NCBI GenBank assembly: GCA_043815505.1
Contig: JBDRIV010000002.1
Coordinates: 246,943 to 310,942, forward strand
Direction: 5' to 3'
From: a bacterium
Lineage (GTDB): Bacteria > Patescibacteriota > JABMPQ01 > JBDRIV01
DNA length: 64,000 nucleotides
How positions within the stretch are numbered: position 1 is the stretch's first letter; every line of letters starts with the position of its first letter. The notes under the pieces are model-generated. The model was given only the letters and a program-made list of their open reading frames with translations. It was not told the DNA's origin and did not search any database. Positions 1 to 62,603 of this stretch are shown one piece after another. The position numbers and the translations under genes were made by a program.

Positions 1-1208
1 TTTCTATTTTAGCTGGAATAGGTCTTATTTTAATAGCTTACTTTTTAACCAAAAAAATAACTGAGAGTAGAAGAACTTCTTTAGCCGCTGCTTTTGTTTT
101 TGCAGTCAATCCTTTCATTTTGCAGTATGCTACCGAAGCCAGAATGTATACTTGGGTAGCTTTATTTGTATTAGTTGGTTTTTATTTCTTTTTGGACGCA
201 ATAAAAGTTGAAAAATTAAAACCTGACAAGAACTGGTATTTAGCAACCTTGTTTTTTAGTTTAGCTTTTTTAACACATTACATTTCTGTTTTTGTAATAT
301 TTATTTTGTGGTTGGCCAGCTTATTTATCTTAAATAAAAAAGTAAAAGTATTTTCTAACTTAGGGAAATACTTTATTTTCTATTTCAGATCATATTTGCC
401 CCTTATAATCACACTTATTCTATGGGTCAGTTATTTTCATAATCATATTAAAAAAGCCATATTTTGGATACCACCAGTTAATATTTGGTCAATTCCAGAA
501 ATGTTTTATGCTTGGTTACTCGGAACAGAAGCAAAGGTTGCTGGTGTGCCGAAAGTAAATGAATTAGCTCTTACCTTAGATATAAAAGTAATTTTTGTGA
601 TCCTCACAGTTGTAATTGTTTGGTTGTTATCAGTATTAATCTTTCGTAATCATTCTGCCAATAGAAAAGATGTTATTCTATTAGCAGTTACTTGGCTATT
701 TCCTTTGTTGTTTCTATTTTTTGGATCTTGGTTTGGTATTTTTAATATGTTTGTGAGTAGATACTTTTTGCCAGTAGCATCGTTTTTCCTAATTAGTTTT
801 ATTATTTTACTGGCCAGATATTATAAAAAAGTTTTGCTATGGGTGTTTCTTTTCTTTTATATGATTGCTATGTTTTTGGTAAATTACAAATTACCAGAAA
901 CACATTTTGCTGAGCTGGCAGCTATTATAGAAGAAAATGCACCAGCAGAAAATTTAGTTTTTGGTGATGGCTACTCACTAGTTATAACCAAATATTATTT
1001 AGGTAATGATGATGAGGACAGAATTTTACTTTATAATATAGATGATCCTTATGAAGACTTTGATTCTTGGCAAGTTATAAATAATAAAATGAGGCTTTTA
1101 GAAGTTGAGGATATTCCGGAAGGAAGTTTAATAATAGCCCAAAAAGATTTTTCAGAAGAGTATTCAAAGATAAACGAGTTTTGGAATTACGGGTTTTATA
1201 AGAAATAA
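1..1208 (+). CDS. GT-C glycosyltransferase, PMT/ArnT-like (family 39/83); 5'-truncated by the window edge
   Basis: The frame is open from nt 3 (SILAGIGLILIAYFLTKKITESRRTSLAAAFVFAVNPFILQYATEARMY...). The protein is multi-TM and the conserved N-terminal loop is typical of PMT/ArnT enzymes. The ORF-track start at 120 is TTG. Stop is TAA at 1206-1208. Confidence 0.55.
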   Translation, partial: SILAGIGLILIAYFLTKKITESRRTSLAAAFVFAVNPFILQYATEARMYTWVALFVLVGFYFFLDAIKVEKLKPDKNWYLATLFFSLAFLTHYISVFVIFILWLASLFILNKKVKVFSNLGKYFIFYFRSYLPLIITLILWVSYFHNHIKKAIFWIPPVNIWSIPEMFYAWLLGTEAKVAGVPKVNELALTLDIKVIFVILTVVIVWLLSVLIFRNHSANRKDVILLAVTWLFPLLFLFFGSWFGIFNMFVSRYFLPVASFFLISFIILLARYYKKVLLWVFLFFYMIAMFLVNYKLPETHFAELAAIIEENAPAENLVFGDGYSLVITKYYLGNDDEDRILLYNIDDPYEDFDSWQVINNKMRLLEVEDIPEGSLIIAQKDFSEEYSKINEFWNYGFYKK

Positions 1209-1235
1209 TATTATTACTACAAAAATAACAAAAAC

Positions 1236-1261
1236 AAAACCACCATATAGGTGGTTTTTTT
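1236..1261 (+). terminator. Rho-independent terminator after the GT-C gene
   Basis: Stem ccacc/ggtgg (1240-1244 / 1250-1254) followed by a T6 tract. Confidence 0.6.
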
Positions 1262-1263
1262 AT

Positions 1264-1388
1264 GGCGGGATTTTCCCCCTTCAGGGGATCACCCGCAGGG
1301 TGAAAATCCCCTTTTCAAACAATTTCATCTGGCGGGGCGGACGGGATTTTCCCCCTTCGGGGGATCACCCGTAAGGGTGAGAACCCGC
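1264..1388 (-). repeat. Two degenerate copies of the tRNA-Asp 3' half (T-arm to acceptor), each with a ~30-nt hairpin insert in the T-loop
   Basis: Minus-strand reading of 1331-1388 is GCGGGTTC-[TCACCCTTACGGGTGATCCCCCGAAGGGGG]-AAATCCCGTCCGCCCCGCC, against the intact tRNA 3' end GCGGGTTCAAATCCCGTCCGCCCCG. The copy at 1264-1311 is more diverged (GGGGATTT-[TCACCCTGCGGGTGATCCCCTGAAGGGGG]-AAAATCCCGCC). Confidence 0.5.
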
Positions 1389-1391
1389 TAT

Positions 1392-1409
1392 TATTACATT
1401 TTGTTCTTT
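1392..1409. repeat. Left arm of an 18-bp perfect inverted repeat bracketing tRNA-Asp
   Basis: tattacattttgttcttt is the exact reverse complement of 1551-1568. Confidence 0.7.
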
Positions 1410-1430
1410 TGTAGATTCTAATTAGCTATG

Positions 1431-1505
1431 CGGGGCGGACGGGATTTGAACCCGCGACCTCCTGCGTGACAGGCAGGCGCTCTAACCGAGCTGAGCTACC
1501 GCCCC
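1431..1505 (-). tRNA. tRNA-Asp (anticodon GTC)
   Basis: Minus strand reads GGGGCGGTAGCTCAGC...CCTGCCTGTCACGCAGG...GCGGGTTCAAATCCCGTCCGCCCCG. The cloverleaf fits, with T8, G73 discriminator and a GTC anticodon loop CTGTCAC. No CCA is encoded. Confidence 0.85.
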
Positions 1506-1550
1506 GCAAAGACAATTAGAATTTGTTTAAGTATATAGAGATTTTTATCT

Positions 1551-1568
1551 AAAGAACAAAATGTAATA
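1551..1568. repeat. Right arm of the 18-bp inverted repeat bracketing tRNA-Asp
   Basis: aaagaacaaaatgtaata is the reverse complement of 1392-1409. Confidence 0.7.
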
Positions 1569-1569
1569 A

Positions 1570-1628
1570 CTCCTGCGCCTGACAGGCTTGTAATCATTCG
1601 GAATCTCCGAATGGTTACAATCAGGCGC
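1570..1628. repeat. Imperfect long hairpin that also contains a fragment resembling the tRNA-Asp anticodon arm
   Basis: ctcctgcgcctgacaggc (1570-1587) shares ctcctgcg and tgacaggc with tRNA-Asp residues at 1459-1480. The segment gcgcctga...tcaggcgc folds as an imperfect stem-loop. Confidence 0.35.
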
Positions 1629-1815
1629 TCATAACCTTGAGCCTAAGCTTCGTCGGAACAACATTCCAGCTTCCGCAACCAAGTAAACTTGATTGTTGCA
1701 GCTTGCATGTGGTTCCTCCTCTCAATCAAAATATGTGCTCATCTGCCTATCGGCGGATTCCGCCTCATATTTTGATTGTATTGCTACCAAACCATTATAA
1801 ATGGGTACTTCTATA

Positions 1816-2289
1816 CTAAATATAATAAGCGAATAATACTCCGTAGGCAAGGATGAAAACAAAAAGCTGAATAGTAAGTCCTGTTATAAAACTTCCTTGC
1901 GGTAAAACATTTTGAATATTGGAATGAAAATCCCAGAACTTTTCTAAAATAGAAATCTTCCAATTTTTGGTTTTAAAAAGAAAAATTGCACCAGTAATTA
2001 GATCAGGAAAGATACTACCAATTATTCCCCAAAACATTGCATCGGAGTATTCAATAACATTGAATGTTGAAGTGAATAAAATAATGAAGATTAAAATATA
2101 AGCATCAACCAAACCTTGTAATAAAATGCTGATTAATTTATTCTTATCACTAAATTCCATTTCTTCGTTTCCGTGCGGAAGAAGGTCAAAAATAAAATGG
2201 AATATAATTCCAAATATAAATGCTAGTATTGGATTTCCGGTGGCAGCGCCGATTACAGTACCGACAGCTGCGTGTGAAGTGCTGAACAT
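1816..2289 (-). CDS. Small polytopic membrane protein, possibly a DUF457-like membrane metal-dependent hydrolase
   Basis: 157 aa with 4-5 TM segments and His-rich N-terminal motifs (SHAAVG...HFIFDLLPHG). Confidence 0.3.
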   Translation of the reverse strand: MFSTSHAAVGTVIGAATGNPILAFIFGIIFHFIFDLLPHGNEEMEFSDKNKLISILLQGLVDAYILIFIILFTSTFNVIEYSDAMFWGIIGSIFPDLITGAIFLFKTKNWKISILEKFWDFHSNIQNVLPQGSFITGLTIQLFVFILAYGVLFAYYI

Positions 2290-2310
2290 TAAAATTCTTA
2301 TTTATTTCCG

Positions 2311-2384
2311 TAGCAGGGGTGGGGATCGAACCCACGACCTCGGGCTTATGAGTCCCGCGCTCTAACCAACTGAGCTACCCTGCC
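2311..2384 (-). tRNA. tRNA-Met (CAT), elongator type; tRNA-Ile2 (lysidine) cannot be excluded
   Basis: GGCAGGGTAGCTCAGTTGGTTAGAGCG-CGGGA-CTCATAA-GCCCG-AGGTC-GTGGGTTCGATCCCCAC-CCCTGCT-A. Positions 1-72 form a G-U pair. No CCA is encoded. Confidence 0.7.
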
Positions 2385-2454
2385 GTATTGGCATGTGGCC
2401 AATAGCTTATTGATTAGGGCACTTGATTTCTAAATTGAAAATGATTATAAACCG

Positions 2455-2491
2455 TAAGCTATTAGCTATATGCCATATGCTCTTTGCCATT
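2455..2491. repeat. Tandem heptamer repeats (tattagc|tatatgc|catatgc|tctttgc|catttgg)
   Basis: Seven-nucleotide periodicity with consensus about TWATRGC. The same family occurs at 10633-10672, 36838-36890, 61649-61679, 61855-61958, 62040-62108 and 62524-62600. Confidence 0.5.
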
Positions 2492-2567
2492 TGGTTGCGG
2501 GGCCCGGACTCGAACCGGGAACCTTGAGGTTATGAGCCTCACGAGCTGCCAATTGCTCCACCCCGCG
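2492..2567 (-). tRNA. Initiator tRNA-fMet (CAT)
   Basis: CGCGGGGTGGAGCAATTGGCAGCTCG-TGAGG-CTCATAA-CCTCA-AGGTT-CCCGGTTCGAGTCCGGG-CCCCGCA-A-CCA. There is a C1xA72 mismatch, A73, and an encoded CCA. Confidence 0.8.
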
Positions 2568-2576
2568 TCGTCGTCG

Positions 2577-2674
2577 CCCCGCTCCAGTTTTATAGAACTC
2601 GGAATATCTAGACTAGATAAAGATTAAAGTATTTCTAAACTTTAAAAATTTGAGTTCTGCAAAACTGGGGCGGG
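2577..2674. mobile_element. MITE-like palindromic element, family 2 (termini CCCGCTCCAGTTTT ... AAAACTGGGGCGGG)
   Basis: About 98 bp with imperfect terminal inverted repeats of about 20 bp (ccgctccagttttatagaactc / gagttctgcaaaactggggcgg). A homologous copy lies at 56769-56867. Confidence 0.5.
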
Positions 2675-2778
2675 ACTCCTCTAAAATTAAATACGTGCTC
2701 GTTTCGCTATGCTCAACTTGCGCACCATATTTAATTTTGACTTTCGCCTATTCTTTCTCATACGAAATCCGTACTAAC

Positions 2779-2818
2779 CAGCTCCAGTTTTCAAACTGGG
2801 GCTGGGCTCCTCTAAAAT
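2779..2818. mobile_element. Internally deleted minimal copy of the family-2 MITE (hairpin gctccagtttt-caa-aactggggc) with the flanking repeat ctcctctaaaat
   Basis: cagctccagttttcaaactggggctgggctcctctaaaat. The flanking direct repeat (g)ggctcctctaaaat also follows copy A at 2675-2687. Confidence 0.45.
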
Positions 2819-2949
2819 ATTTAATAGACTTTAAATAGTATAACGATATTCTAAAAATTTATCAAGTTTTATCGTATATTAATCAAAGTTTGGGGAAATG
2901 GCTAATTTTAGCTATAATTAAAAGGAAATTAGCCAATATTCTCTAATAA

Positions 2950-4593
2950 ATGAAGATAATCCCATTAATCAAAAAGCATTGGTATTTAGTGGCCCTAATT
3001 ACTTTTTTTATTGTCATTACAAGCATAATAAACATTTTCACTCCTCCTTGGGCATTTCCAGATGAATCAGCCCATTTTTCTTATACTGAATTTATTATTG
3101 AACACCATACTTTACCATCATATTTAACTAGCTTAGATTTTTGGGAAGCTCATCAACCGCCGCTCTATTATTCACTGGGGGTCTTAATAAAATTACCAAT
3201 TCAAAATCTGGCAGTATCCTTGCAACTTATTGTTTTAAGATTATTTTCAACACTATTGGCAGTGGGTACAATAATGGTTTCTTATTTAATAGGAAAGAAA
3301 ATTTTCAAAAATAAATATTTAATATTATTAGTACCGACATTGGTTGCACTTTTGCCGATGCAGATTTATATTGCCAGTTCGTACAACAATGATAATTTGG
3401 CAAATTTGCTCGGAGCTCTGCTAATATATTTCTTTTTAATATTTTGGCGAGAAAAGATATCTCAAAAAAACATCATTTGGTTTTCCGTGATTGTTACAGC
3501 TTCGATTTTAACAAAAGTCGGTTTATATCCGATTGTGGCTATTGTTTTCATATTTCTAATTTATAAATTAATTAGACAGAAAAATTGGAGGTTGTTGTCA
3601 ATTATAATTATGGTCCCACTTATTTTAAGTGGCTGGTGGTTTGTTAGAAACTATTTTGTTTACGGCGATCTGTTTGGCTGGTCTCAGACTGAAAAATTGT
3701 GGGCTTTACAGAAACAAGATATTTGGCAACGAGATATTTTTATAAGATGGTGGCGAACAACTTACGAAAGCTTTTGGGGAATATTTGGTGGTTTAAATAT
3801 TGCCATGCAACCTTGGGTTTACAAAATCTTAAAAATTATTGGTGTGCTAGCATTTTTTGGCAATCTGATTTTCTTCTGGCAAAAAGAAAATTCTAAAAAT
3901 ATTAAAACCAAACTAATTTGGTTGTACGGAATATTTGGTATCACACTTCTCAGCGTTTTTGTTTACAGTATAAAATTTTATCAACCACAAGGAAGATATT
4001 TATTTATTGCTCTCATTTCAGCTGTGATATTTCTGGTTGTTGGTTTGGGAATGATTACAAAAAATAAAAATTATAGAATGTTTGTTTTAATTCTGGCAAT
4101 ATTGTTTTTTGGAAATCTCAGTTTTACCAACACAGAGTTGTTAAGAGATTATAATCAAAAGAAATATAAACCAATGACCGAATATGAAATTACCGACAAA
4201 GCTACTTTTGCAGTTGGCGAAGAAAGATTCAAAAAAGAAGGTCCGGCTACAATAACAATTAAGGATTCTGAAAATGTTTTACTGGAAACAATGTTTTCCA
4301 ACACCAGAGCTGATACTTCTAAAATTAAGCAAGTAGAACTGGAAATAGAATCTTACAGCGAAATAGAGGCAAAATTGCTATATAGAAATTTGGTTGAAAA
4401 GGAATTTATGCTGGAAAATAGTACAGATTTCACGGTAAAAGAAGGTGTAAATACTTATACACTAGCGCTACCTGACAATAGAGGTTATCCTAATATTACT
4501 AGGGAATTTGCCATATATTTAGATGGTCAAATTGGGCAATTTAATTTAAACAAATTCAAACTAGTTTTTAATGAAGAAGTAAGATCGTTATGA
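2950..4593 (+). CDS. GT-C glycosyltransferase, PMT/ArnT-like (family 39/83), with a C-terminal soluble domain
   Basis: 547 aa with about 11 TM segments. The first loop carries a DE motif (AFPDESAHFSY), and N-terminal similarity to the ORF at 1-1208 suggests a paralog. Its stop overlaps the sbcD start (ATGA). Confidence 0.55.
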   Translation: MKIIPLIKKHWYLVALITFFIVITSIINIFTPPWAFPDESAHFSYTEFIIEHHTLPSYLTSLDFWEAHQPPLYYSLGVLIKLPIQNLAVSLQLIVLRLFSTLLAVGTIMVSYLIGKKIFKNKYLILLVPTLVALLPMQIYIASSYNNDNLANLLGALLIYFFLIFWREKISQKNIIWFSVIVTASILTKVGLYPIVAIVFIFLIYKLIRQKNWRLLSIIIMVPLILSGWWFVRNYFVYGDLFGWSQTEKLWALQKQDIWQRDIFIRWWRTTYESFWGIFGGLNIAMQPWVYKILKIIGVLAFFGNLIFFWQKENSKNIKTKLIWLYGIFGITLLSVFVYSIKFYQPQGRYLFIALISAVIFLVVGLGMITKNKNYRMFVLILAILFFGNLSFTNTELLRDYNQKKYKPMTEYEITDKATFAVGEERFKKEGPATITIKDSENVLLETMFSNTRADTSKIKQVELEIESYSEIEAKLLYRNLVEKEFMLENSTDFTVKEGVNTYTLALPDNRGYPNITREFAIYLDGQIGQFNLNKFKLVFNEEVRSL

Positions 4594-5711
4594 AAATAAT
4601 TCATACAGCCGACATACATTTGGGAAGAAAATTTACCAAGCTGGGCGAAAAAGCAGGTGAGCAACGTCAACTATTACGCGACGCTTTTACAAAAGTGGTT
4701 GATTTAGCTTGCGCCGATGACGTGGACTTATTGCTGATCGCTGGCGACTTGTTTGATTCCAATAAAGTTTCGAAAGCAGAGATAGAATTTGCGCGCGAAC
4801 AATTTGAAAAATTGGCCAGCCACGAAAAATGGGTTTGTATTTCTCATGGAACTCACGATGCTAATGACGGTTTGTCGGTTTTAAATCGCGACAAGTTTTT
4901 AAATACATTTAATAATGTGATATTGTTCGACAACAAAAAACAAAGTCATAATTTCCCCCATTTAGATTTAACAGTTTATGGAATTTCTAATTCAGCTAAC
5001 AAGGGAAAAGATGACCCGCTAGCTAAAGTTCAAAAAGATGATAAAGCAAAATATCATATTGCTATGATTCACGGCTCGGTAGCAATTGAATCTAAACATG
5101 CACCCGACGATTGGCCAATTGATCCCGAGAAAATAAAAAATAGTGAATTAAATTATATTGCGCTTGGTCATTGGCATTCCACGCAAGACATGAGCCAGGG
5201 GAAAGTTCAAGCTTGGTATGCCGGGGCCCCAGAAAGTATTGATTATGATGAAAAGGGTGGTAATGCGTTAGAAGTTTCTATAACAGACAAGGAAACAAAA
5301 GTTAAGGAAATCAAAGTTGGACAAAGGAATTTTGACAAAATAGAAATTGACGTTGCAGAATTTGCTGATTACAAAGATTTGAAAAAAGCCATGATAAAAG
5401 GAGCTAACAAAAATTTAGCCAGACAAATTATTTTAAAAGGTTTGGTTGGTCCCGAAAAAATGGTTGATAAAAAAATGCTCCAAGAAGAATTAGCAGCAAA
5501 TTTCTATCAAGTAAATATTGATATCAAAAATCTTCATTTAGATATAGATAACATAAACGAAAAAGATTATCCGGAAGAATTGGTAATAGGTCAGTATGTT
5601 AGAGCTTTAAAAAAGGAATTGTCCAGCGCTAAAAATGATGAAGAAAAAGCAATTTTAGAAAAAGCTTTGCATAAAGGCGTGGCTCTGCTTTCTGGAAAGG
5701 AGATTCTGTAA
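4590..5711 (+). CDS. sbcD: DNA repair exonuclease SbcD/Mre11 (calcineurin-like phosphoesterase)
   Basis: The phosphoesterase motifs are present: MKIIHTADIHLG, LLLIAGDLFD, SHGTHD, MIHG, GHWH. Confidence 0.85.
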   Translation: MKIIHTADIHLGRKFTKLGEKAGEQRQLLRDAFTKVVDLACADDVDLLLIAGDLFDSNKVSKAEIEFAREQFEKLASHEKWVCISHGTHDANDGLSVLNRDKFLNTFNNVILFDNKKQSHNFPHLDLTVYGISNSANKGKDDPLAKVQKDDKAKYHIAMIHGSVAIESKHAPDDWPIDPEKIKNSELNYIALGHWHSTQDMSQGKVQAWYAGAPESIDYDEKGGNALEVSITDKETKVKEIKVGQRNFDKIEIDVAEFADYKDLKKAMIKGANKNLARQIILKGLVGPEKMVDKKMLQEELAANFYQVNIDIKNLHLDIDNINEKDYPEELVIGQYVRALKKELSSAKNDEEKAILEKALHKGVALLSGKEIL

Positions 5712-7757
5712 ATGTTTATAAAACTTTTACAACTTAGACGTTTTAAAAAGTTTGATGAGTTGGAACTGTTTTTTACTTCAGGAATTAACGTTATCAAAGG
5801 TCCAAATGAAGAGGGGAAGTCAACTTTGGTAGCCGCTCTATTGGCTGGACTCTTTTTAGATCCTAAATCTCGTTCGCAAAGCAAAGTTCTGCCCTTAAAA
5901 TCTTGGCATCACGAACAGCTTTTTGAAACCAATACGGTTTTTGTGACTGATGCCAACAAACAATATTTATTGCAAAAAGATTTTGAAAATAAAGAAATTT
6001 TGTTACGTGATGAAAACAAAAAAAATGAATGGAAGACTTTTGATGAAGTGAGAGAAATTATTGCCACAGAAACTGGACTTTCATCGCCAGAGTTGTTTGC
6101 AGCTACCGCCATGATTGAACAAGACAAAGTGGCAGAAATTTCATCGGGCAAAAAGGAATTGGAAAAATCTTTACAAATCTTGGTAACGGCTGGCCAAGAT
6201 AGTGCCAATGTTCAGGATATTTTAAAAAGTTTAGATAAAGAAATTAAAAATTATAATCGCGGAGTGGATAGACCAGTTTCTAATCCCGGATTAATAAGAA
6301 AAATCTCAGATGAATTAACCAGTGTAACAGCCGAAATTTCTAAAGAAGCTGGAGGAGTGCAAACAATTGATAAAGTGAGATCAGAAAACGACGAGTTGGT
6401 TAAAAGAACAGAACAGAACAAAAAAGATTTAGATCAAAAGAAGGAATTAAAAGATTTGAATTTGCAGTTTAGAGATTTAAGTGGCAAGTTGGAAAAATAC
6501 GAAAAAGATCTAACAGACGTTACAACTACAATTTCTGAACTTGAAAAAATAAATAATGAATTAAGAAATAATAAAAAATCCTTAAGTATTTTTAAAGATT
6601 GGGAAAAAAGGAATTTGGATAAAGATGAAGACAGTTTAACCAGACTCTCCGAACGGGTAGCAATGGCTAAAAGTATTGTTACCGAAGAAATAAAAGCTAA
6701 ACGACCAACTTGGCCCTGGCTGGTTGGTGGCGCGTTAATCGTTTTAGGCTTGATAGGTTTAGCCATTTATTGGTATACAAGCTTGTTAGCTCTCATCGGA
6801 ATTGCGGTTATCATATTTGGTTTTACTCAAAAATCTCAAAAACAAGTTGCCATTCATGATAAACATGAAGCTGACAAGGAAGATAAAAAGTTGGCAGAAC
6901 TTTTAAAAGACTTGGGTGTTAAAACGTTAGAAGAGTTTAAAAAGAAGAAAGAAGAAATGGTAAGTATACATAACAAAGAACAAGAATTAATGTCGGAACG
7001 TAAAGGAATTTTAAGAGATCGCAAAGAAAATGATTTGGAAAAACAAAAAACAGTCTTGGCCAGAGATATTGCTGTAACTGAAGCTAAAATTACTGATGAA
7101 ATGAAACAAGCTAAGCTTTCACCAGAAGAATGGCATAAGCTGGATAAAGATATTGAAGAATTGGACAGACAATTTAGAAATGATCGCGAACATTACGAAA
7201 AAAATCTAGGAATAATTGAACAGTATGAAAAAAGTAGTCATGATCTGGTTGCGATGGAGGAAAGGCAAGAACAACTACAAGGAAAATTAGATTTCGTGAA
7301 AGAACAAGAGCAAGTTCTAGAAACTGTAAAAAACTTTATGCTAAATTCCAGTGTTGATGTTGTGAAAACAAGTAAAACCAGATTACAAAAGAATTTAAAT
7401 GAAATATTGCCAACTATTACGAATGGAAAATACAAGAAAGTTGAAGTCGCCGATGATTTATCTTTTACTGTTTTTTCAGATGAAGCGGGGGATAAAATTG
7501 TTCCCGAGAAATCACTTTCTCGAGGAGCGATTGATCAATTTTATTTAGCAGTGCGGTTTGCTTTTATTGATTTAATATCTGAAGGAAAAAAACCACCAAT
7601 TATTTTAGATGATCCCTTTGTAACTTTTGATAAAAGTCGGCGCGCTGCCACTATGGGATTATTAAAAGATTTAGCCAAAGATTATCAAATATTTTTATTT
7701 ACTGCATCTGATGATTATGACAAATATGCCAATAAAGTAATTGCTCTCAATGGATAA
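5712..7757 (+). CDS. sbcC: SbcC/Rad50-like ATPase with a central transmembrane hairpin
   Basis: Walker A (GPNEEGKST), coiled-coil regions, signature LSRGAIDQ, and Walker B IILDDPF. The coiled-coil apex (about aa 335-375) holds two hydrophobic helices (WLVGGALIVLGLIGLAIYWY / LLALIGIAVIIFGF), and there is no CxxC zinc hook. Confidence 0.75.
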   Translation: MFIKLLQLRRFKKFDELELFFTSGINVIKGPNEEGKSTLVAALLAGLFLDPKSRSQSKVLPLKSWHHEQLFETNTVFVTDANKQYLLQKDFENKEILLRDENKKNEWKTFDEVREIIATETGLSSPELFAATAMIEQDKVAEISSGKKELEKSLQILVTAGQDSANVQDILKSLDKEIKNYNRGVDRPVSNPGLIRKISDELTSVTAEISKEAGGVQTIDKVRSENDELVKRTEQNKKDLDQKKELKDLNLQFRDLSGKLEKYEKDLTDVTTTISELEKINNELRNNKKSLSIFKDWEKRNLDKDEDSLTRLSERVAMAKSIVTEEIKAKRPTWPWLVGGALIVLGLIGLAIYWYTSLLALIGIAVIIFGFTQKSQKQVAIHDKHEADKEDKKLAELLKDLGVKTLEEFKKKKEEMVSIHNKEQELMSERKGILRDRKENDLEKQKTVLARDIAVTEAKITDEMKQAKLSPEEWHKLDKDIEELDRQFRNDREHYEKNLGIIEQYEKSSHDLVAMEERQEQLQGKLDFVKEQEQVLETVKNFMLNSSVDVVKTSKTRLQKNLNEILPTITNGKYKKVEVADDLSFTVFSDEAGDKIVPEKSLSRGAIDQFYLAVRFAFIDLISEGKKPPIILDDPFVTFDKSRRAATMGLLKDLAKDYQIFLFTASDDYDKYANKVIALNG

Positions 7758-10632
7758 TATTGCTGTCAAGAAACTGAATCGCGAGCAAAGAAGGGCCGTA
7801 ACCGCAGGAGGTGGCCCACTTTTAATCGTGGCTGGCGCTGGTACTGGTAAAACGACAGTTATTACTCAACGTTTTGCTTGGCTTTTAAAAAACAAGAAAT
7901 TAGAACCAAAAAACATTTTAGCCGTAACTTTTACCGAAAAAGCGGCGGGAGAAATGGAGGAGCGCATCGATCAGCTTTTGCCACTGGGTTATTCTGATTT
8001 ATGGATTCACACTTTCCATGGCTTTGCTGATAGAGTTTTACGTTCTCATGCCTTAGAAATTGGCCTGGATCCATTTTATAAAGTTTTAACTCAATCCGAT
8101 CAGTGGCTTTTCTTACGCAAACATATTTTTGATTTCAACATTGATTATTATCGGCCCCTGGGCAATCCTACAAAATTCTTGCAGGAAATTATAAAACACA
8201 TTAGTCGTGCCAAAGATGAAAATGTTACGCCAGCAGATTATAAAAAGTATGCCAATACCAAACACAAAGATAAAGATGGAGAAGAAATAAAAAGATTAAA
8301 AGAAATTGCTCATATTTATGCCAAATATCAGCAAAAAATGGCCAAGGCTGGATTCTTGGATTTTGGTGATCTTATTATGTACACCATGAAGCTTTTTAAG
8401 AAACGACCCAACATTTTAAAAGAATACCAGCAACAATTTAAATATATTTTGGTTGATGAATTTCAGGATACTAACTGGGCGCAATACGCCATGATGAAGA
8501 TGATGGCGCGTCCAGAAAACAATCTAACGGTTGTAGGTGATGACGACCAAGCAATTTTCAGGTTCCGAGGAGCTTCCGTTTCCAATATTCTACAATTCGA
8601 AAAAGATTTTCCCAAAGCAAAAAAAGTTGTGATGTTGCAAAACTACAGATCCACGCAAGAAATTCTGGATTTAGCATATAAATCAATCCAGTTTAATAAT
8701 CCTGATCGCTTGGAAGAAAAATATGGTATTAATAAAAAATTGCAAGCGCAAAAAAAGGATGAGAAATCTGTAAACTGGATTCATAAAAAAACTATGGAAC
8801 AAGAGGCGGTGGCTGTGGTTGAGGAAATAATTAAATTGAATAAAAAGCAAAAATCTTGGAATAAATTTTGTATTTTGGTACGCGCTAATGCCACGGCTGA
8901 TGTATTTTTAGCAGCTCTTAGCAAAAATAACATTCCCTATCAGTTTTTAGCTTCACGCGGTTTGTATCAACGCTCAGAAATAATAGATATTATGTCCTAT
9001 CTTAGAGTGTTAGCAGATTTTTATGACAACATAAATTTGCTAAGAGTTTTATCAATTGAAGTATTTGATATTCATATTTCTGATATCACAAAAATAATTC
9101 ACTATGCCAAAAAGAAAAACATTCCCCTTATTGATGTTTTGTTGAATATCGATAAATATTTGAAACTATCAAGCGAAACTAATCAAAAAGTAAATAAAGT
9201 TACCAATTTAATTGAAGAGCACAGTAATTTGGCCAAAAATCGTCCCGCTTCAGAAATCTTGGTTCACTTTTTAGAAGATTCTGGTTACATGAAAGATTTG
9301 CGCTCTCAAGACACGCCAGAAAATGACGAAATAATTTTAAATATTGGTCAGTTTTTCAAACAAGTTCAAGAATATCAGCTGACGGGTAATACTTTCTTGG
9401 TGCGAGATTTTATTGCGGAAGTGGATTTAGCAATAGAAGGGGGCGAAGATCCAGCGCCAGTTGTGCCCATGGAAGGACCAGAAGCTGTAAAAATTATGAC
9501 CATTCACGCAGCTAAGGGTTTAGAGTTTCCAGTAGTTTTTGTAGCTTCAGTTGTGGAAGAAAGATTTCCAGTGCGTCGGCGTTCCGATCTTATTCCTCTG
9601 CCCAATGATTTTGTAAAAGAAATACTACCAGAAGGAGATGAACACTTGGAAGAAGAGCGGCGTTTGTTCTACGTTGCCTGCACTCGGGCTAAAGAAAAAC
9701 TTTATTTTACAACCGCTGAAGACTACGGTGGTAAGCGCAGTAAAAAAATATCACGTTTTTTATCTGAAATTTCAAAACCTTTGACAAAATTTGTGAAAGA
9801 AGTACCACCAAAATTATCTCCGAAAGAAAAAGAAGAGGCTCTAGGGTTCATAAAACCTGAAGCAGCTGTAATAGTTAAAAGAACGGGAACTAAATTTGAA
9901 ATTCCCAAAAAGTTTTCCTATTCTCAAATTAGAGATTTTAATGATTGTCCGTTACGTTATAAATTTAAATATCTGTTAAAAATTCCTCAACGAGGTTCTC
10001 AGGTTTTTTCTTATGGTCAATCTTTACACGGCACGTTGCGAAAGTTTCATGAACAAATAAAATTGGGCAAGCAGCCAAAGGAGGAAGACTTACATAAATA
10101 TTTAAATCAAGAATGGGTGGGTGATTGGTATTCTTCTCGGGCTCATGAAAGAAAAAGAAAAAAGGAAGCCAAGGACACCTTAAAAAAATATTATCAAGAC
10201 AACAAAAGTAATTTCAAAAAGCCAGTTTATTTGGAAAAAGGTTTTAGTGTAAAAATAAACAAAACTTCATTTTCAGGATTCATTGATCGCGTAGATGATT
10301 TAGGTAAAGGGAAAGTGGAGATTATTGATTACAAAACCGGTTCTATGCCAAAAGCCAAAGCAGATATTGAACAAGCGAAAAGACAGCTTTATATTTATGG
10401 TTTAGCTATGAAAGAAGTTTTCAAATTACAGCCAGAAAAAGTAACCCTTTATTATTTAGACAAAGGAGAACAGATTTCAGATTCATTATTGCCAGAGAGA
10501 ATGAAGATAGAAATGAAGGAATTAGTGACTACAACAAAGGAAATCAAGAAAAGTAAATTTAATCCCACACCTGGTTATATGATTTGTAAATATTGTGACT
10601 TTCGTGATATTTGCGAAGCGAGACATAGATAG
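7741..10632 (+). CDS. UvrD/PcrA-family helicase fused to a C-terminal RecB/Cas4-like PD-(D/E)xK nuclease with an Fe-S cysteine cluster (AddA/AddB-like helicase-nuclease)
   Basis: The helicase motifs GAGTGKT and VDEFQDTN are present. The C-terminus carries GFIDRVDDLGKGKVEIIDYKTG plus C...CxxCxxxxxC (CPLRY...CKYCDFRDIC). The start overlaps sbcC by 17 nt. Confidence 0.8.
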   Translation: MLSMDNIAVKKLNREQRRAVTAGGGPLLIVAGAGTGKTTVITQRFAWLLKNKKLEPKNILAVTFTEKAAGEMEERIDQLLPLGYSDLWIHTFHGFADRVLRSHALEIGLDPFYKVLTQSDQWLFLRKHIFDFNIDYYRPLGNPTKFLQEIIKHISRAKDENVTPADYKKYANTKHKDKDGEEIKRLKEIAHIYAKYQQKMAKAGFLDFGDLIMYTMKLFKKRPNILKEYQQQFKYILVDEFQDTNWAQYAMMKMMARPENNLTVVGDDDQAIFRFRGASVSNILQFEKDFPKAKKVVMLQNYRSTQEILDLAYKSIQFNNPDRLEEKYGINKKLQAQKKDEKSVNWIHKKTMEQEAVAVVEEIIKLNKKQKSWNKFCILVRANATADVFLAALSKNNIPYQFLASRGLYQRSEIIDIMSYLRVLADFYDNINLLRVLSIEVFDIHISDITKIIHYAKKKNIPLIDVLLNIDKYLKLSSETNQKVNKVTNLIEEHSNLAKNRPASEILVHFLEDSGYMKDLRSQDTPENDEIILNIGQFFKQVQEYQLTGNTFLVRDFIAEVDLAIEGGEDPAPVVPMEGPEAVKIMTIHAAKGLEFPVVFVASVVEERFPVRRRSDLIPLPNDFVKEILPEGDEHLEEERRLFYVACTRAKEKLYFTTAEDYGGKRSKKISRFLSEISKPLTKFVKEVPPKLSPKEKEEALGFIKPEAAVIVKRTGTKFEIPKKFSYSQIRDFNDCPLRYKFKYLLKIPQRGSQVFSYGQSLHGTLRKFHEQIKLGKQPKEEDLHKYLNQEWVGDWYSSRAHERKRKKEAKDTLKKYYQDNKSNFKKPVYLEKGFSVKINKTSFSGFIDRVDDLGKGKVEIIDYKTGSMPKAKADIEQAKRQLYIYGLAMKEVFKLQPEKVTLYYLDKGEQISDSLLPERMKIEMKELVTTTKEIKKSKFNPTPGYMICKYCDFRDICEARHR

Positions 10633-10672
10633 CATATGGCTTATGGCTTGTAGCGAATGGCTAATGGCACGG
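10633..10672. repeat. Tandem heptamer repeats (atatggc|ttatggc|ttgtagc|gaatggc|taatggc)
   Basis: Clear 7-nt periodicity. It contains ggcttgtagc, identical to the first 10 nt of the downstream tRNA-Ala. Confidence 0.5.
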
Positions 10673-10689: not shown

Positions 10690-10897
10690 TTGTATAATAC
10701 AAAAATTAAATATGGTGCGTAGCTAGCGAAGTGAAGCGAGCACGTGTTTCAACTAAAGAAAGTAATACAATTTGAATTTGGAGCGCATCCGCCAGCTGGC
10801 GGAGAGCACGGATTCAAATTGAGAGGACAAACAATGTGTAAGCTGAAGAGATTCAACCTGTTGAATTTCGTAAGCTGGAAAGTTGTTTGGACGAAGA
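10690..10897 (+). ncRNA. Candidate structured leader or small RNA upstream of tRNA-Ala (unclassified)
   Basis: A TGTATAAT extended -10-like element at 10691-10698 is followed by about 190 nt with several inverted repeats (caatttgaatttgg...ggattcaaattg; cgccagctggcg; gattcaacctgttgaatttc). No credible ORF is present. Confidence 0.25.
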
Positions 10898-57234: not shown

Positions 57235-58287
57235 ATGAATAAGGTTATTAAGACAAAGAGTGTTGGTATGGGCATAACAGAGGTCACAGAGGATTTCATT
57301 CTTTCTGAGGAGCCTATGTCTCGTCTAGTGTTTCAAGCAAAAATGCATAGCAAAGGAATAAGGGGCAGAATTGTTAGACAACGAAGAGAATCCACTAATG
57401 ATGTATGGATTTCTGAAAAAGCGATGCACATACGTGATTTGGGTAAAAATGAAACAATCAATTTAGATTTATGCACAGATGCTGTAAATAAATTATACTC
57501 AGCAATAGTTAGGCTTGCTAATATTTTGAAAGAAAAAGGAATAGAATATGGGGAAAATTCTTATGCCGTTGTTGATCCTGAGTCTATAGTTATCACCGAT
57601 AAAAATAAAGTTCAGTATATTAAAAAGATTGTTGATGCTGGACACGATGAAGATGTGTGGAGACAATTAGTTGAAGCCAATCCAACACTAGTAACAAAAC
57701 TATCGTATGCCAGAATACTTGATACAAAGAATAGCACATTAAAAGAATTAAATGATCGATTAGAGAAAGGTGGCTATCTCGAAACCTCAGGTGATGATTC
57801 ATGGCAGAAATGGATATACGATAACAATTGGTTGTTTGGAGTTAATTACAGAGATCCAATACAAAAGGAAAAAATAAACATTTCAGGAATAATGCCTGAT
57901 TATTTATTTCCAACACTAGATAATTTTGTAGACATTCTAGAAATAAAGCTTCCTCATGATGAGGTTATAGTGGCTGACTCTAGTCATCCTGGTTCTTGGA
58001 AGTTCACATTGCAAACAAATTTAGCTATTGGTCAAGTTGTAAATTATTTAGGCGAGATAGATAGATTGAGAAGAGAAATAGAACCTGAAGTAAAAAAGCA
58101 ATATGGATATGAGGTTTATTTTCTGAAGCCCCGAGCATACATTTTAATTGGTGATAGTGATAAATGGGAAGATGACAAAAAAGAAGGCTTGAGGAAATTA
58201 AATCATGCTCTTCACGGAATTGAAATTCTCACATACAGAGACCTATACGATAGAGGAAAAAGATCTTTAGAAATCAAAAATGAATGA
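57235..58287 (+). CDS. Shedu-like (DUF4263) PD-(D/E)xK nuclease, candidate antiphage defence protein
   Basis: The motif block reads DNNWLFGVNY, then MPDYLF (the D motif), then VDILEIKLP (the ExK motif), then IGQVVNY (QxxxY). I recall this order for the SduA nuclease domain. Confidence 0.5.
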   Translation: MNKVIKTKSVGMGITEVTEDFILSEEPMSRLVFQAKMHSKGIRGRIVRQRRESTNDVWISEKAMHIRDLGKNETINLDLCTDAVNKLYSAIVRLANILKEKGIEYGENSYAVVDPESIVITDKNKVQYIKKIVDAGHDEDVWRQLVEANPTLVTKLSYARILDTKNSTLKELNDRLEKGGYLETSGDDSWQKWIYDNNWLFGVNYRDPIQKEKINISGIMPDYLFPTLDNFVDILEIKLPHDEVIVADSSHPGSWKFTLQTNLAIGQVVNYLGEIDRLRREIEPEVKKQYGYEVYFLKPRAYILIGDSDKWEDDKKEGLRKLNHALHGIEILTYRDLYDRGKRSLEIKNE

Positions 58288-61648: not shown

Positions 61649-61679
61649 CATAGAGCTAATAGCTTATGGCGAATGGCAC
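61649..61679. repeat. Tandem heptamer repeats (atagagc|taatagc|ttatggc|gaatggc)
   Basis: Same family as 10633-10672. Followed by an extended -10-like TGTTATAAT at 61693-61701. Confidence 0.5.
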
Positions 61680-61731
61680 AAGGAAATGTATTTGTTATAA
61701 TATAATTAGCTATTGGTAATAAGCCAACCTA

Positions 61732-61773
61732 CCGAAGTAGCTCAGTGGCTAGAGTCCCGCTCCAGTTCACTTT
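61732..61773 (+). repeat. Partial duplicate of the tRNA-Thr(TGT) 5' end (23 nt) fused to a family-2 MITE terminus (tcccgctccagtt)
   Basis: ccgaagtagctcagtggctagag is identical to residues 2-24 of the tRNA at 61774. Confidence 0.5.
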
Positions 61774-61846
61774 GCCGAAGTAGCTCAGTGGCTAGAGCAG
61801 CTGTTTTGTAAACAGCAGGTCGTGGGTTCGAATCCCACCTTCGGCT
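61774..61846 (+). tRNA. tRNA-Thr (anticodon TGT)
   Basis: GCCGAAGTAGCTCAGTGGCTAGAGCA-GCTGT-TTTGTAA-ACAGC-AGGTC-GTGGGTTCGAATCCCAC-CTTCGGC-T. Confidence 0.8.
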
Positions 61847-61854
61847 AAAATAGC

Positions 61855-61958
61855 TTATAGAAAATGGCTAATAGTTAATAGCGAATGGAATAATGTAAAT
61901 TAGGTGAAAGATCATTACAGATACAATATGCAATTAGTTATAGGCTATAAGCCAATTA
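61855..61958. repeat. Heptamer-repeat-rich spacer between the two tRNA-Thr genes
   Basis: aaaatagc|ttataga|aaatggc|taatagt|taatagc|gaatgga... and ggctataagccaattagc. Confidence 0.35.
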
Positions 61959-62033
61959 GCCGATGTAGCTCAGGGGTAGAGCAACTCCATGGTAAGGAGT
62001 AGGTCGGCGGTTCAATTCCGCCCATCGGCTCCA
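61959..62033 (+). tRNA. tRNA-Thr (anticodon GGT), CCA encoded
   Basis: GCCGATGTAGCTCAGGGGTAGAGCA-ACTCC-ATGGTAA-GGAGT-AGGTC-GGCGGTTCAATTCCGCC-CATCGGC-T-CCA. Confidence 0.8.
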
Positions 62034-62039
62034 GGAATT

Positions 62040-62108
62040 AGCATATTGCTTATAGCATGTAGCTAATAGCAAATACTATTCGCTATAAGCTATTGGTCAT
62101 AAGCCAAT
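62040..62108. repeat. Tandem heptamer repeats (tattgct|tatagca|tgtagct|aatagca|aatacta|ttcgcta|taagcta|ttggtca|taagcca)
   Basis: Nine consecutive 7-nt units. Confidence 0.5.
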
Positions 62109-62110
62109 GT

Positions 62111-62213
62111 GGGCAGGTGGCAGAGCGGTCAAATGTATCAGACTGTAAATCTGACGTCTTACGACTACGGGGGTTCTCACCCTGCGGGTGATCAGCCTTT
62201 GGCTGAGAATCCC
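62111..62213 (+). pseudogene. Pseudo-tRNA-Tyr: exact copy of tRNA-Tyr nt 1-66, then a 30-nt hairpin insert in the T-loop, then a degenerate 3' end
   Basis: 66 nt identical to 62268-62333, then TCACCCTGCGGGTGATCAGCCTTTGGCTGA, then GAATCCC, then divergence. The insert hairpin matches the one in the tRNA-Asp fragments at 1264-1388. Confidence 0.55.
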
Positions 62214-62267
62214 AATAGTAAAATAATACTAAGTGCTAATAATATAAATTCAAAATATATCTTATGT

Positions 62268-62350
62268 GGGCAGGTGGCAGAGCGGTCAAATGTATCAGAC
62301 TGTAAATCTGACGTCTTACGACTACGGGGGTTCGAATCCCTCCCTGCCCA
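62268..62350 (+). tRNA. tRNA-Tyr (anticodon GTA), long variable arm
   Basis: GGGCAGGTGGCAGAGCGGTCAAATGTATC-AGACTGTAAATCTGA-CGTCTTACGACTACG-GGGGGTTCGAATCCCTC-CCTGCCC-A. Confidence 0.85.
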
Positions 62351-62381
62351 TAGATAAATCAATTATTAGAAAGTAAATTAA

Positions 62382-62537
62382 ATGTCACAAGACAATCTAA
62401 TCAAATTTGAATGCATGGAATGCAAAAGAGTTAACTATCATTCTCAAAAGAATAAAAAAACTATCAAAGATCGTTTACACATGAACAAGTATTGTAAATG
62501 GTGCAAAAAACATACTGAACACAAAGAAACTAAATAG
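62382..62537 (+). CDS. rpmG: 50S ribosomal protein L33 (Zn-ribbon form); not in the supplied ORF track because it is under 60 aa
   Basis: [51 protein letters not shown]. It lies between tRNA-Tyr and tRNA-Trp, a classic neighbourhood. Confidence 0.75.
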
Positions 62538-62603
62538 CATATGGCTTAGGGCGTATGGTGTAGAGCACAATAAATCTATTTGTTCTTAGCTATATGCCAA
62601 TTA

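Follow-up and report, generated by a model that had tools for sequence, protein, structure and literature searches.

A tandem double-hairpin insert in the T loop of decayed tRNA gene copies, possibly a miniature insertion element of Patescibacteria-type genomes

Short hairpin-forming elements have been described in mitochondria, as the double-hairpin elements (DHEs) of Allomyces and other chytrids and of fission yeasts, and as the GC clusters of yeast mitochondria (PMC10085805). DHEs are very short and GC-rich, consist of two adjacent hairpins in an AT-rich compact genome, and are located in intergenic regions or in structural RNA genes; near-identical copies occur across species, and the elements are thought to be mobile, the enzyme not being known (PMC10085805). 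Related hairpin elements are treated in PMC2800124 and PMC4478555. Repetitive extragenic palindromic sequences (REPs) are palindromic repeats of 20-40 bp that carry a GTAG or CGTC tag, are usually abundant and are linked to REP-associated tyrosine transposases (RAYTs) (PMC3733652). REPs and Rickettsia palindromic elements (RPEs) are viewed as non-autonomous mobile DNA that moves via single-stranded hairpins, and they are sometimes found in frame within genes, often those of replication or repair (PMC3733652); small palindromic repeats of the REP/RPE type inserted in genes are also the subject of PMC2229807. Here we describe a module of two tandem hairpins that interrupts the T loop of partial tRNA-Asp and tRNA-Tyr gene copies in a bacterial stretch of 64,000 nucleotides (64 kb; contig JBDRIV010000002.1 of assembly GCA_043815505.1), which is called the window below.

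Anatomy and recurrence of the insert

The intact (live) tRNA-Tyr gene of the window is accompanied by a partial (dead) copy that comprises four leader bases and tRNA positions 1-56 and is preceded by the leader motif ATAAGCCAAT, common to other tRNAs of the cluster (Table 1). After C56 the copy continues with TCACCCTGCGGGTGA (62177-62191) and TCAGCCTTTGGCTGA (62192-62206), which form hairpin 1, TCACCC-TGC-GGGTGA, and hairpin 2, TCAGCC-TTT-GGCTGA. The T loop is then resumed, but the copy stops at 62213, approximately at tRNA position 63, is divergent beyond this point and lacks positions 64-76. The three-way junction predicted for this module (see below) had z scores of -3.1 as RNA and -4.2 as DNA.

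Next to the live tRNA-Asp gene there are two dead 3' copies, both lacking tRNA positions 1-48. On the minus strand copy 2 reads GCGGGTTC-(TCACCCTTACGGGTGA TCCCCCGAAGGGGGA)-AAATCCCGTCCGCCCCGCCA, that is, the 5' strand of the T stem and TTC (1381-1388), a 31-nt module in parentheses, and a remainder (1331-1349) made up of AAAT, the 3' strands of the T stem and of the acceptor, and CCA. In an alignment with the live gene the insert appears as a clean gap of 31 nt, and 18 nt of the copy are an exact repeat of the live gene's 3' end. Its hairpins are TCACCC-TTAC-GGGTGA (1365-1380) and TCCCCC-GAA-GGGGGA (1350-1364). Copy 1, also on the minus strand, reads GGGGATTT-(TCACCCTGCGGGTGA TCCCCTGAAGGGGGA)-AAATCCCGCCA with a 30-nt insert at 1274-1303, and is 91% identical to copy 2 across 35 nt.

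All three inserts lie precisely between T-loop positions C56 and R57, and all consist of two tandem hairpins of 15-16 nt that belong to one family, TCNNCC-N3-4-GGNNGA, and add up to 30-31 nt. The module has about 60% GC, against 36% in the window. The motif TCACCC-N3-GGGTGA was observed twice in the window, where 0.03 occurrences were expected, and none of 100 shuffled sequences reached two; hairpin 1 of the third copy has a 4-nt loop. With a covariance model (R1) the three sites alone scored 60-70 bits, the next hits being plain T arms with 17 bits or less. Folding predicts that in the presence of the insert the T-loop halves TTC and RAA pair, which turns the T arm into a fully paired three-way junction, and the same junction is predicted from RNA and from DNA of either strand. 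The whole unit is quasi-palindromic about a central GATC, and the one-strand covariance model scored the opposite strand at 38-50 bits. No bulge-helix-bulge motif with 3-nt bulges was present in the minimum-free-energy folds of the junctions. A hammerhead or other small-ribozyme core was ruled out by eye, the three-way junction having no unpaired conserved core. Rfam, applied at the gathering threshold to the whole window and at E<=10 to positions 1150-3000, returned only tRNAs and chance matches to miRNAs and sRNAs.

A first-pass annotation of the window had reported an exact 66-nt copy of the tRNA-Tyr 5' portion. An exact copy is present, and the identity extends over 70 nt rather than 66. 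The same annotation had correctly placed a 30-nt insert between GGTTC and GAATCCC of this copy, outside the position of bacterial group I introns, and the length, the location in the T loop and the lack of an Rfam match agree with this. The two tandem Asp copies it described as having the same architecture were both found, copy 1 being more degenerate than had been implied. Its observation that hairpin 1 is conserved between Asp and Tyr whereas hairpin 2 varies was confirmed, in the case of hairpin 2 by compensatory changes. Its argument that occurrence at two different tRNAs speaks for a specific process holds, whether the process recognises sequence or structure.

To find further copies, 185,579 species-representative genomes were scanned with the pattern GTTCTCACCC-N3-4-GGGTGATC, which yielded 75 loci, mostly chance matches within GC-rich open reading frames (ORFs). 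Approximately 12 loci had the full architecture (GGTTC, hairpin 1, hairpin 2, RAWTCC and the 3' part of a tRNA), and all of these have a tRNA gene as neighbour in the same orientation, as the first-pass annotation had suggested looking for. The neighbouring genes are tRNA-Arg in locus L006 (labelled Jacksonbacteria), tRNA-Met in L010 (Gammaproteobacteria, a metagenome-assembled genome, MAG) and L055 (Moranbacteria), tRNA-Ser in L018 (Patescibacteria), tRNA-Gly in L028 (CPR2), L032 (Gammaproteobacteria MAG; tandem 79-nt units) and L046 (Patescibacteria), tRNA-Ile in L056 (Gammaproteobacteria MAG; two copies) and tRNA-Leu, which the copy follows, in L065 (Gammaproteobacteria MAG). A stricter scan of metagenome contigs returned four of the known loci and a tRNA-Ser locus from two independent metagenome samples (L077/L079), an example of the architecture repeating in independent assemblies; viral contigs gave no match to the module pattern. 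The carriers are mostly Patescibacteria, and the four Gammaproteobacteria are such by label alone, being MAG contigs with 39-45% GC. In all, the module was found between C56 and R57 in dead copies of at least eight tRNA species from about ten genomes.

Two layouts could be distinguished. In the 3' type the live tRNA gene is followed by a short spacer, (G)GGTTC, the module, and the 3' part of T loop, T stem and acceptor, often with CCA. In the 5' type, represented by tRNA-Tyr of the window and tRNA-Ile of L056, a leader and the 5' part of the tRNA down to GGTTC are followed by the module, by RAATCCN to about position 63, by a spacer and by the live gene. The spacers between live and dead copies measure 9-62 nt and contain no cargo, except in L046, where a GIY-YIG pseudogene (approximately 240 nt) separates two tRNA-Pro copies.

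When 14 copies were aligned, hairpin 1 was nearly invariant and the loops were not conserved. Hairpin 2 contains two covarying pairs (CG in 7, AU in 6 and GC in 1 sequence; CG in 6, GC in 5 and UA in 2), each of them altered on both sides in 7 of the 14 sequences. Over the three helices 92.9% of the cells were paired, compared to 42-56% with slid partners. Variants of hairpin 2 are shared by unrelated loci: TCAGCC by the Tyr copy of the window, L006 and L056, TCCCCC by the Asp copy of the window, L010, L018 and L046, and TCCGCC by L032 and L065.

Additional modules were sought in the fetched loci with the covariance model and with a regular expression that contained no flanks. In L046, TCGCCCAGAGGGCGA followed by CCGCCCTTTGGGCGG occupies the D loop of two dead tRNA-Pro copies, a 5' fragment and one of full length, and the full-length copy has in its T loop a second module type, TCCCCCTACGGGGGA followed by CCACCCGTAGGGTGG; region 4330-4910 (minus strand) of this locus holds the live tRNA-Pro, the GIY-YIG nuclease pseudogene with an in-frame stop, and the full-length dead copy. 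A link to GIY-YIG homing endonucleases was rejected, as tblastn detected none in the window or in any locus besides L046. A tRNA-Phe 3' fragment nearby in L046 has a different T-loop insert, CTGTCATCCTGAGCGAAGCGAAGGG.

A protein-coding gene also carries the module: in L006 (91-120) and equally in L076 (11331-11360), TCAGCCAGAGGCTGA and TCAGCCTTCGGCTGA lie in tandem and in frame (10 codons) within polA and encode approximately LQPKADQPLAE; the site is a linker of variable length in the 3'-5' exonuclease domain. The two closest polA homologues (47-48% identity) are 12 residues shorter at the linker; the closest homologue, P0002, was unusable as an empty site, since it begins after the insertion point. 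To its left the module is bordered by GGTTC in T loops, by CAGTT in the D loop, and in polA by GCTTT or AGGCT. The first-pass suggestion of a small tRNA-targeting insertion module is therefore supported as regards the recurrence at many tRNAs and in many genomes, but the targeting is not strictly tRNA-specific.

Other hairpin inserts were noticed in dead copies, in the D arm of L056 copy b, in the 3' region of the T stem in L077 and in the anticodon loop of the L046 tRNA-Gly copy. The window itself contains a lone hairpin of the same family, TCCGCC-AGCT-GGCGGA (10788-10803), whose stem is that of hairpin 2 in L032 and L065; it is enclosed in a larger inverted repeat, CAATTTGAAT...ATTCAAATTG (10769-10830), in a 260-nt gap upstream of tRNA-Ala.

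Origin of the module and of the dead copies

The chances seem to us about even that the insert is a miniature palindromic double-hairpin insertion element, which inserts into the loops of hairpins and persists solely where it has hit a redundant tRNA pseudogene. A GC-rich double-hairpin DNA element would have multiplied inside small AT-rich Patescibacteria-type genomes and passed from one to another, its target being the loop of a short hairpin already present in the DNA; the palindromic tRNA T arm, between C56 and R57, would be the preferred site. Insertion at this site would destroy the tRNA, so that the element is seen solely in redundant copies beside a working gene, where selection does not purge it. 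The dead copies would either have been redundant already when they were hit, or a duplication or replacement of the tRNA gene would have rescued the cell, and the D and anticodon loops of such copies would also take up hairpins of other kinds. The module would probably move as DNA via single-stranded hairpin intermediates, with the help of a putative trans-acting enzyme.

Two syntenic relatives, L082 (GCA_030603885.1) and L084, share the gene order S2-Tsf-...-TPR followed by tRNAs, and their compact tRNA-Thr/Tyr/Thr clusters contain no dead copy, no module and no flanking repeats. Taking into account that both relatives lack these sequences, the Tyr structure of the window is a derived gain. 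The dead copies are pseudogenes in decay, which differ in extent and have additional lesions. When live tRNAs were aligned to the flanks, the 3'-type copies of L055, L046 and L018 were found to reach upstream of the T arm in decayed form. In L046 the T stems are TGGG/CCCA in the dead copy and CGGG/CCCG in the live gene, and in L056 they are ATGG/CCAT and GTGG/CCAC, respectively, each internally complementary. The self-complementary stems of the dead copies indicate that dead T arm and module together are a contiguous piece of a once-functional allele, rather than the hybrid that a T-loop crossover would produce. Reverse transcription of a mature tRNA was considered in view of the end of Asp copy 2 (GCCA, compared to GCA in the live gene), and was rejected as a general explanation, since both L010 and L055 show identity that continues past the tRNA end into the trailer.

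These stems also bear on the proposal, made in the first-pass annotation, that the copies are attachment (att)-site scars. Integrative elements would then have used a recombinase directed at the tRNA T arm, and the modules would be the scars they left or small non-autonomous forms derived from them, the hairpins being an element-side part of attP and the partial tRNA copy a displaced or supplied gene half. Crossover in the T loop would leave chimeric stems, whereas those of the dead copies are self-consistent; and the insert is flanked by both T-loop halves, an arrangement not given by a simple attL or attR. It is nevertheless the classic footprint of tRNA-targeting integrases that a partial tRNA copy adjoins an intact gene, and the 3' copies do cover the tRNA between T arm and 3' terminus, CCA frequently included, but some dead copies reach 5' of the T arm, and modules were also found in the D loop and in polA. 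The 3' part differs from the live gene in L006, L018, L046, L065 and L077, as if half of the copy were foreign, and the tandem units of L032 resemble repeated integrations. Against such a history, Pfam found no integrase, transposase, serine recombinase or other recombinase among the 40 largest ORFs of the window, a search for a cognate integrase or recombinase having been among the proposals of the first-pass annotation (nor was a RAYT-like gene, a tyrosine transposase of the IS200/IS605 type or TnpA found among these ORFs), and with the exception of L046 no cargo separates live and dead copies, viral contigs being devoid of matches. An origin from att sites thus appears unlikely.

It is similarly improbable, in our judgement, that the module is a functional structured RNA or a single-stranded DNA signal derived from the T arm. 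The junction would be co-transcribed with the tRNA and would have a role in processing, termination or stability, or serve as a decoy for a T-arm-binding protein. The conserved sequence of hairpin 1, the conserved and covarying structure of hairpin 2, and the three wobble pairs in the hairpins, all of which are G.U on the tRNA-sense strand, would fit such a function, as would the T stems still paired in the dead copies. The dead copies appear to lie inside the tRNA transcription unit, judged by the position of the terminator, and region 1225-1660 around tRNA-Asp folds far better than shuffled sequences (z = -11). A constrained RNA is, on the other hand, difficult to reconcile with unconserved loops, with the lack of an Rfam family, and with a context that varies from 5' to 3' pieces, from one to three or more copies, and between spacers unrelated in sequence. 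Both strands are equally palindromic, the module is absent from the syntenic relatives, and it occurs in a coding region and in D loops.

The sequence of the T arm is quasi-palindromic already, and the module consists of alternating GGG/CCC blocks continuous with the T stem. One might therefore suppose that local palindromes arose by template switching or hairpin-primed synthesis at the T arm during replication or repair and were later homogenised by gene conversion, no mobile element being involved; unrelated palindromes in the loops of dead copies, e.g. a 34-nt AT-rich hairpin at 1587-1620 (see below), would accord with this. The hairpin sequences are, however, not derived from the local T stem, and independent local origin would not yield the same hairpin 1 and a few hairpin 2 variants across tRNAs and genomes, which makes this explanation very improbable. 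Archaeal-type T-loop introns or split tRNA halves, which the first-pass annotation had also brought up, resemble the insert in its position in a tRNA loop and its hairpin nature but in nothing else, and have almost no chance of being correct, for the host is bacterial, the search it proposed for a bulge-helix-bulge-like fold gave the fully paired three-way junction instead, none of the copies is complete, each having lost an acceptor strand or decayed in some other way, and an intact gene is found next to them.

Several observations tell against a miniature insertion element. Both large scans demanded the prefix GTTC, and one of them also RAWTC after the module, so that outside the window the T-loop association is partly built in; the unbiased evidence for the T loop consists of the window (3 of 3 modules) and of a handful of additional modules from the loci that were fetched. 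The copy number is low, the 64 kb containing three modules and a single isolated hairpin. Neither a transposase nor any other enzyme was linked to the module, and an excised or circular form is not on record. The regular end points, near position 63 in the 5' copies and from near the T stem in the 3' copies, are not explained by random decay, and the constant adjacency of an intact copy could point to a mechanism that couples insertion and duplication. The uniform orientation of the wobble pairs hints weakly at a strand-specific constraint, acting on RNA or on a single strand. Finally, L082 and L084 are distant (about 60% S2 identity) and constitute weaker evidence of mobility than strain-level polymorphism would, and the polA case depends on homologues of no more than 47-48% identity.

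A more far-reaching proposal, which we put forward tentatively and would sooner doubt than accept, is that the modules represent a class of ultra-small (30 nt) structure-homing elements in bacteria of the candidate phyla radiation (CPR), or else a T-arm three-way junction co-opted as a functional RNA. A structure-homing element would recognise a DNA (or RNA) hairpin loop, above all the conserved T arm, with single-nucleotide precision and without target duplication, and would be mobilised by a host enzyme or one acting in trans; its insertion would drive turnover, duplication and xenologous replacement of the tRNA genes at these loci.

If the miniature T-loop-homing element is real, it would be among the smallest site-specific insertion elements known, and a bacterial counterpart of the mitochondrial DHEs, whose mechanism is also unsolved. 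It would offer a handle on the gain and loss of DNA in the tiny, streamlined genomes of Patescibacteria, and would account for the unusual litter of partial tRNA genes that can confound tRNA annotation and the prediction of genomic islands. For annotation, the fragments should be treated as pseudogenes, and not as phage attachment sites or split tRNAs.

Other features of the window and its host

The coordinates of the features at the two loci are compiled in Table 1.

Table 1. Features of the tRNA-Tyr and tRNA-Asp loci in the window
Feature	Position	Strand	Basis or remark
Live tRNA-Tyr (GTA, class II)	62268..62350	+	ARAGORN; Rfam
Dead tRNA-Tyr 5' copy	62107..62176	+	70 nt, 100% identical to 62264-62333
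Module in Tyr copy, 30 nt	62177..62206	+	R1 65.6 bits; between C56 and G57
GAATCCC, T-loop positions 57-60 and three T-stem bases	62207..62213	+	sequence, alignment
Live tRNA-Asp (GTC)	1431..1505	-	ARAGORN; Rfam tRNA 72.8 bits; reference for both dead 3' copies
Dead tRNA-Asp 3' copy 2	1331..1388	-	sequence; covariance model R1 70.1 bits
Module in Asp copy 2	1350..1380	-	perfect 6-bp stems; three-way junction predicted as RNA and DNA
Dead tRNA-Asp 3' copy 1, more decayed	1263..1311	-	sequence; R1 59.7 bits
Intrinsic-terminator-like hairpin and T run	1236..1258	-	ends tRNA-Asp unit, after dead copies
19-bp perfect inverted repeat, arm one	1391..1409		pairs with 1551-1569; separates live tRNA-Asp from dead 3' copy
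19-bp perfect inverted repeat, other arm	1551..1569		brackets live tRNA-Asp
Decayed tRNA-Asp-like 5' piece, approximately positions 8-46	1570..1649	-	local alignments

The 19-bp inverted repeat around tRNA-Asp occurs in the window in just these two copies, and in the predicted fold of the region the live tRNA-Asp is located at the tip of the long stem they form. The 5' piece beyond the repeat carries a near-perfect AT-rich palindrome of 34 nt (approximately 1587-1620) between tRNA positions 31 and 32; this hairpin, at the 5' border of the anticodon loop, is of a different kind from the GC-rich module. The diverged 5' piece and the module-bearing 3' piece (1331-1388) flank the live gene, and on their sequences they may be the two parts of one old tRNA-Asp gene that was split by a cassette with the live gene. 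Leader-trailer inverted repeats bracket tRNA genes at 61921-61952/62048-62079 and 2389-2416/2448-2475 as well; from its predicted pairing the repeat looks like a processing stem or a cassette boundary, and repeats bracketing tRNAs in this manner were not found in the syntenic relatives L082 and L084.

At the Tyr locus, a sigma-70-like promoter match (TTGGCT-17-AATAAT, 62199-62227) has its -35 hexamer within hairpin 2 of the module and, as a motif match, may be the promoter of the live tRNA-Tyr, a gene no longer preceded by the shared leader motif. Upstream in the same cluster, the 23 nt at 61732-61754 are identical to the 5' end of tRNA-Thr(TGT), D arm included, and are located behind the shared leader motif; the fragment is followed by TCCCGCTCCAGTTCACTTT, which resembles the tRNA-Gly 3' end and trailer as in L028, and then by the intact tRNA-Thr(TGT). 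An analogous 23-nt tRNA-Phe fragment is present in L046. At 2575-2677 and 2778-2806, upstream of an initiator-type tRNA-Met, there are two hairpins built on CC(C/A)GCTCCAGTTTT / AAAACTGGGGC(G/T)GG, each followed by the repeat CTCCTCTAAAAT; one stem half matches the tRNA-Gly 3'-end-like motif of TCCCGCTCCAGTTCACTTT, and Rfam has no family for either hairpin. The short repeat AATAGCTTATRGC and its variants occur 17 times in the window, compared to 4 expected, with clusters on both sides of tRNA genes (2401-2484, 10628-10668 and 61658-62545); it might act as a promoter or in processing, or else constitute a further family of repeats.

The window contains 8 tRNA genes (ARAGORN; Rfam), and Pfam assigned to its 40 largest ORFs only housekeeping functions and a few defence or repair genes. 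Among the products are PheRS, GyrB, NusG, L1, GatB, MiaA/B, ThrRS, DnaE, FtsW, a V/A-ATPase operon, S2, Tsf, PyrH, and SbcCD-like, AddA-like and Shedu SduA-like proteins. Ribosomal protein S2 has at most 62% identity to any other, and its named neighbours are overwhelmingly Patescibacteria; judged by this protein and by the class II tRNA-Tyr, the host is a bacterium of the Patescibacteria type. The protein encoded by the gene adjoining tRNA-Asp is unique, its sole match being in an NCBI MAG labelled 'bacterium'. At 4590-10632, genes for an SbcD/SbcC-like pair precede one for an AddA-like helicase-nuclease. SbcCD-type enzymes attack DNA hairpins, and this activity may bear on the fate of palindromic inserts. 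A protein with a Shedu SduA C-terminal domain is encoded at 57235-58287, and a collagen-like Gly-X-Y repeat ORF (62849-64000), with tandem periods of 36, 54, 63 and 81 nt, is open at the end of the window.

Comparison with known systems

A survey of the searchable literature on T-loop insertions, hairpin-bearing tRNA fragments and Patescibacteria tRNAs, and of Rfam 15, revealed no description of a T-loop-specific double hairpin. Several known systems share some of its features. Williams, in 2002, is said to have described integrases of a P4-like class that cross over in the tRNA T loop. With the att sites of that class the loci have in common that a partial copy from the T arm to the 3' end adjoins an intact tRNA gene; they differ in having neither an integrase nor the body of an element, in keeping both T-loop halves around the 30-nt insert, and in T stems that are not chimeric. 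Non-canonical introns and split tRNAs of archaea likewise place extra sequence in a tRNA loop other than the anticodon loop, but the module has no bulge-helix-bulge, resides in a bacterial host and is found in incomplete copies with a functional gene adjacent. Bacterial group I introns of tRNA genes, of approximately 200-300 nt and with a group I core in the anticodon loop, are not comparable to an insert of 30 nt in the T loop for which Rfam had nothing.

Among mobile DNA, the insertion sequences (IS) IS1397 and ISKpn1 insert into the loops of REPs; they are full-size IS with a transposase and generate target-site duplications. The target, the loop of a DNA hairpin, is of the same kind here, whereas the module is 30 nt long and has no visible duplication. 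Palindrome-associated transposable elements (PATE), derived from IS200/IS605, carry hairpins at both ends and insert directly 3' of a fixed target of 4-5 nt; the left flanks of the module vary (see above).

The module resembles REPs and bacterial interspersed mosaic elements (BIMEs) in being a short palindromic unit (15-16 nt with a perfect 6-bp stem, 30-31 nt for the pair), and the polA copy of L006 parallels the in-frame insertions of the REP/RPE type in replication and repair genes. It differs from REPs in that neither GTAG nor CGTC occurs in the module alignment, the units starting with TC and finishing with GA, in its low copy number, and in the lack of a RAYT-like gene among the 40 largest ORFs of the window. 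BIMEs and REP doublets forming hairpins (REPINs) are inverted REP pairs, whereas the module is made of two tandem hairpins; RPEs are much longer.

The mitochondrial DHEs, too, are single short units of two adjacent GC-rich hairpins in an AT-rich genome, and the module shows the same signs of mobility, being absent from the syntenic L082 and L084 and having hairpin variants common to several genomes. In contrast to the organellar DHEs, the module is bacterial, prefers the T loop with single-nucleotide precision and is tied to partial tRNA copies, and we did not find T-loop precision or an association with partial tRNAs reported for DHEs. Since it has neither the tag nor the abundance of REPs, and is bacterial rather than organellar, the module is best classed among the small palindromic mobile repeats, as a variant of its own.

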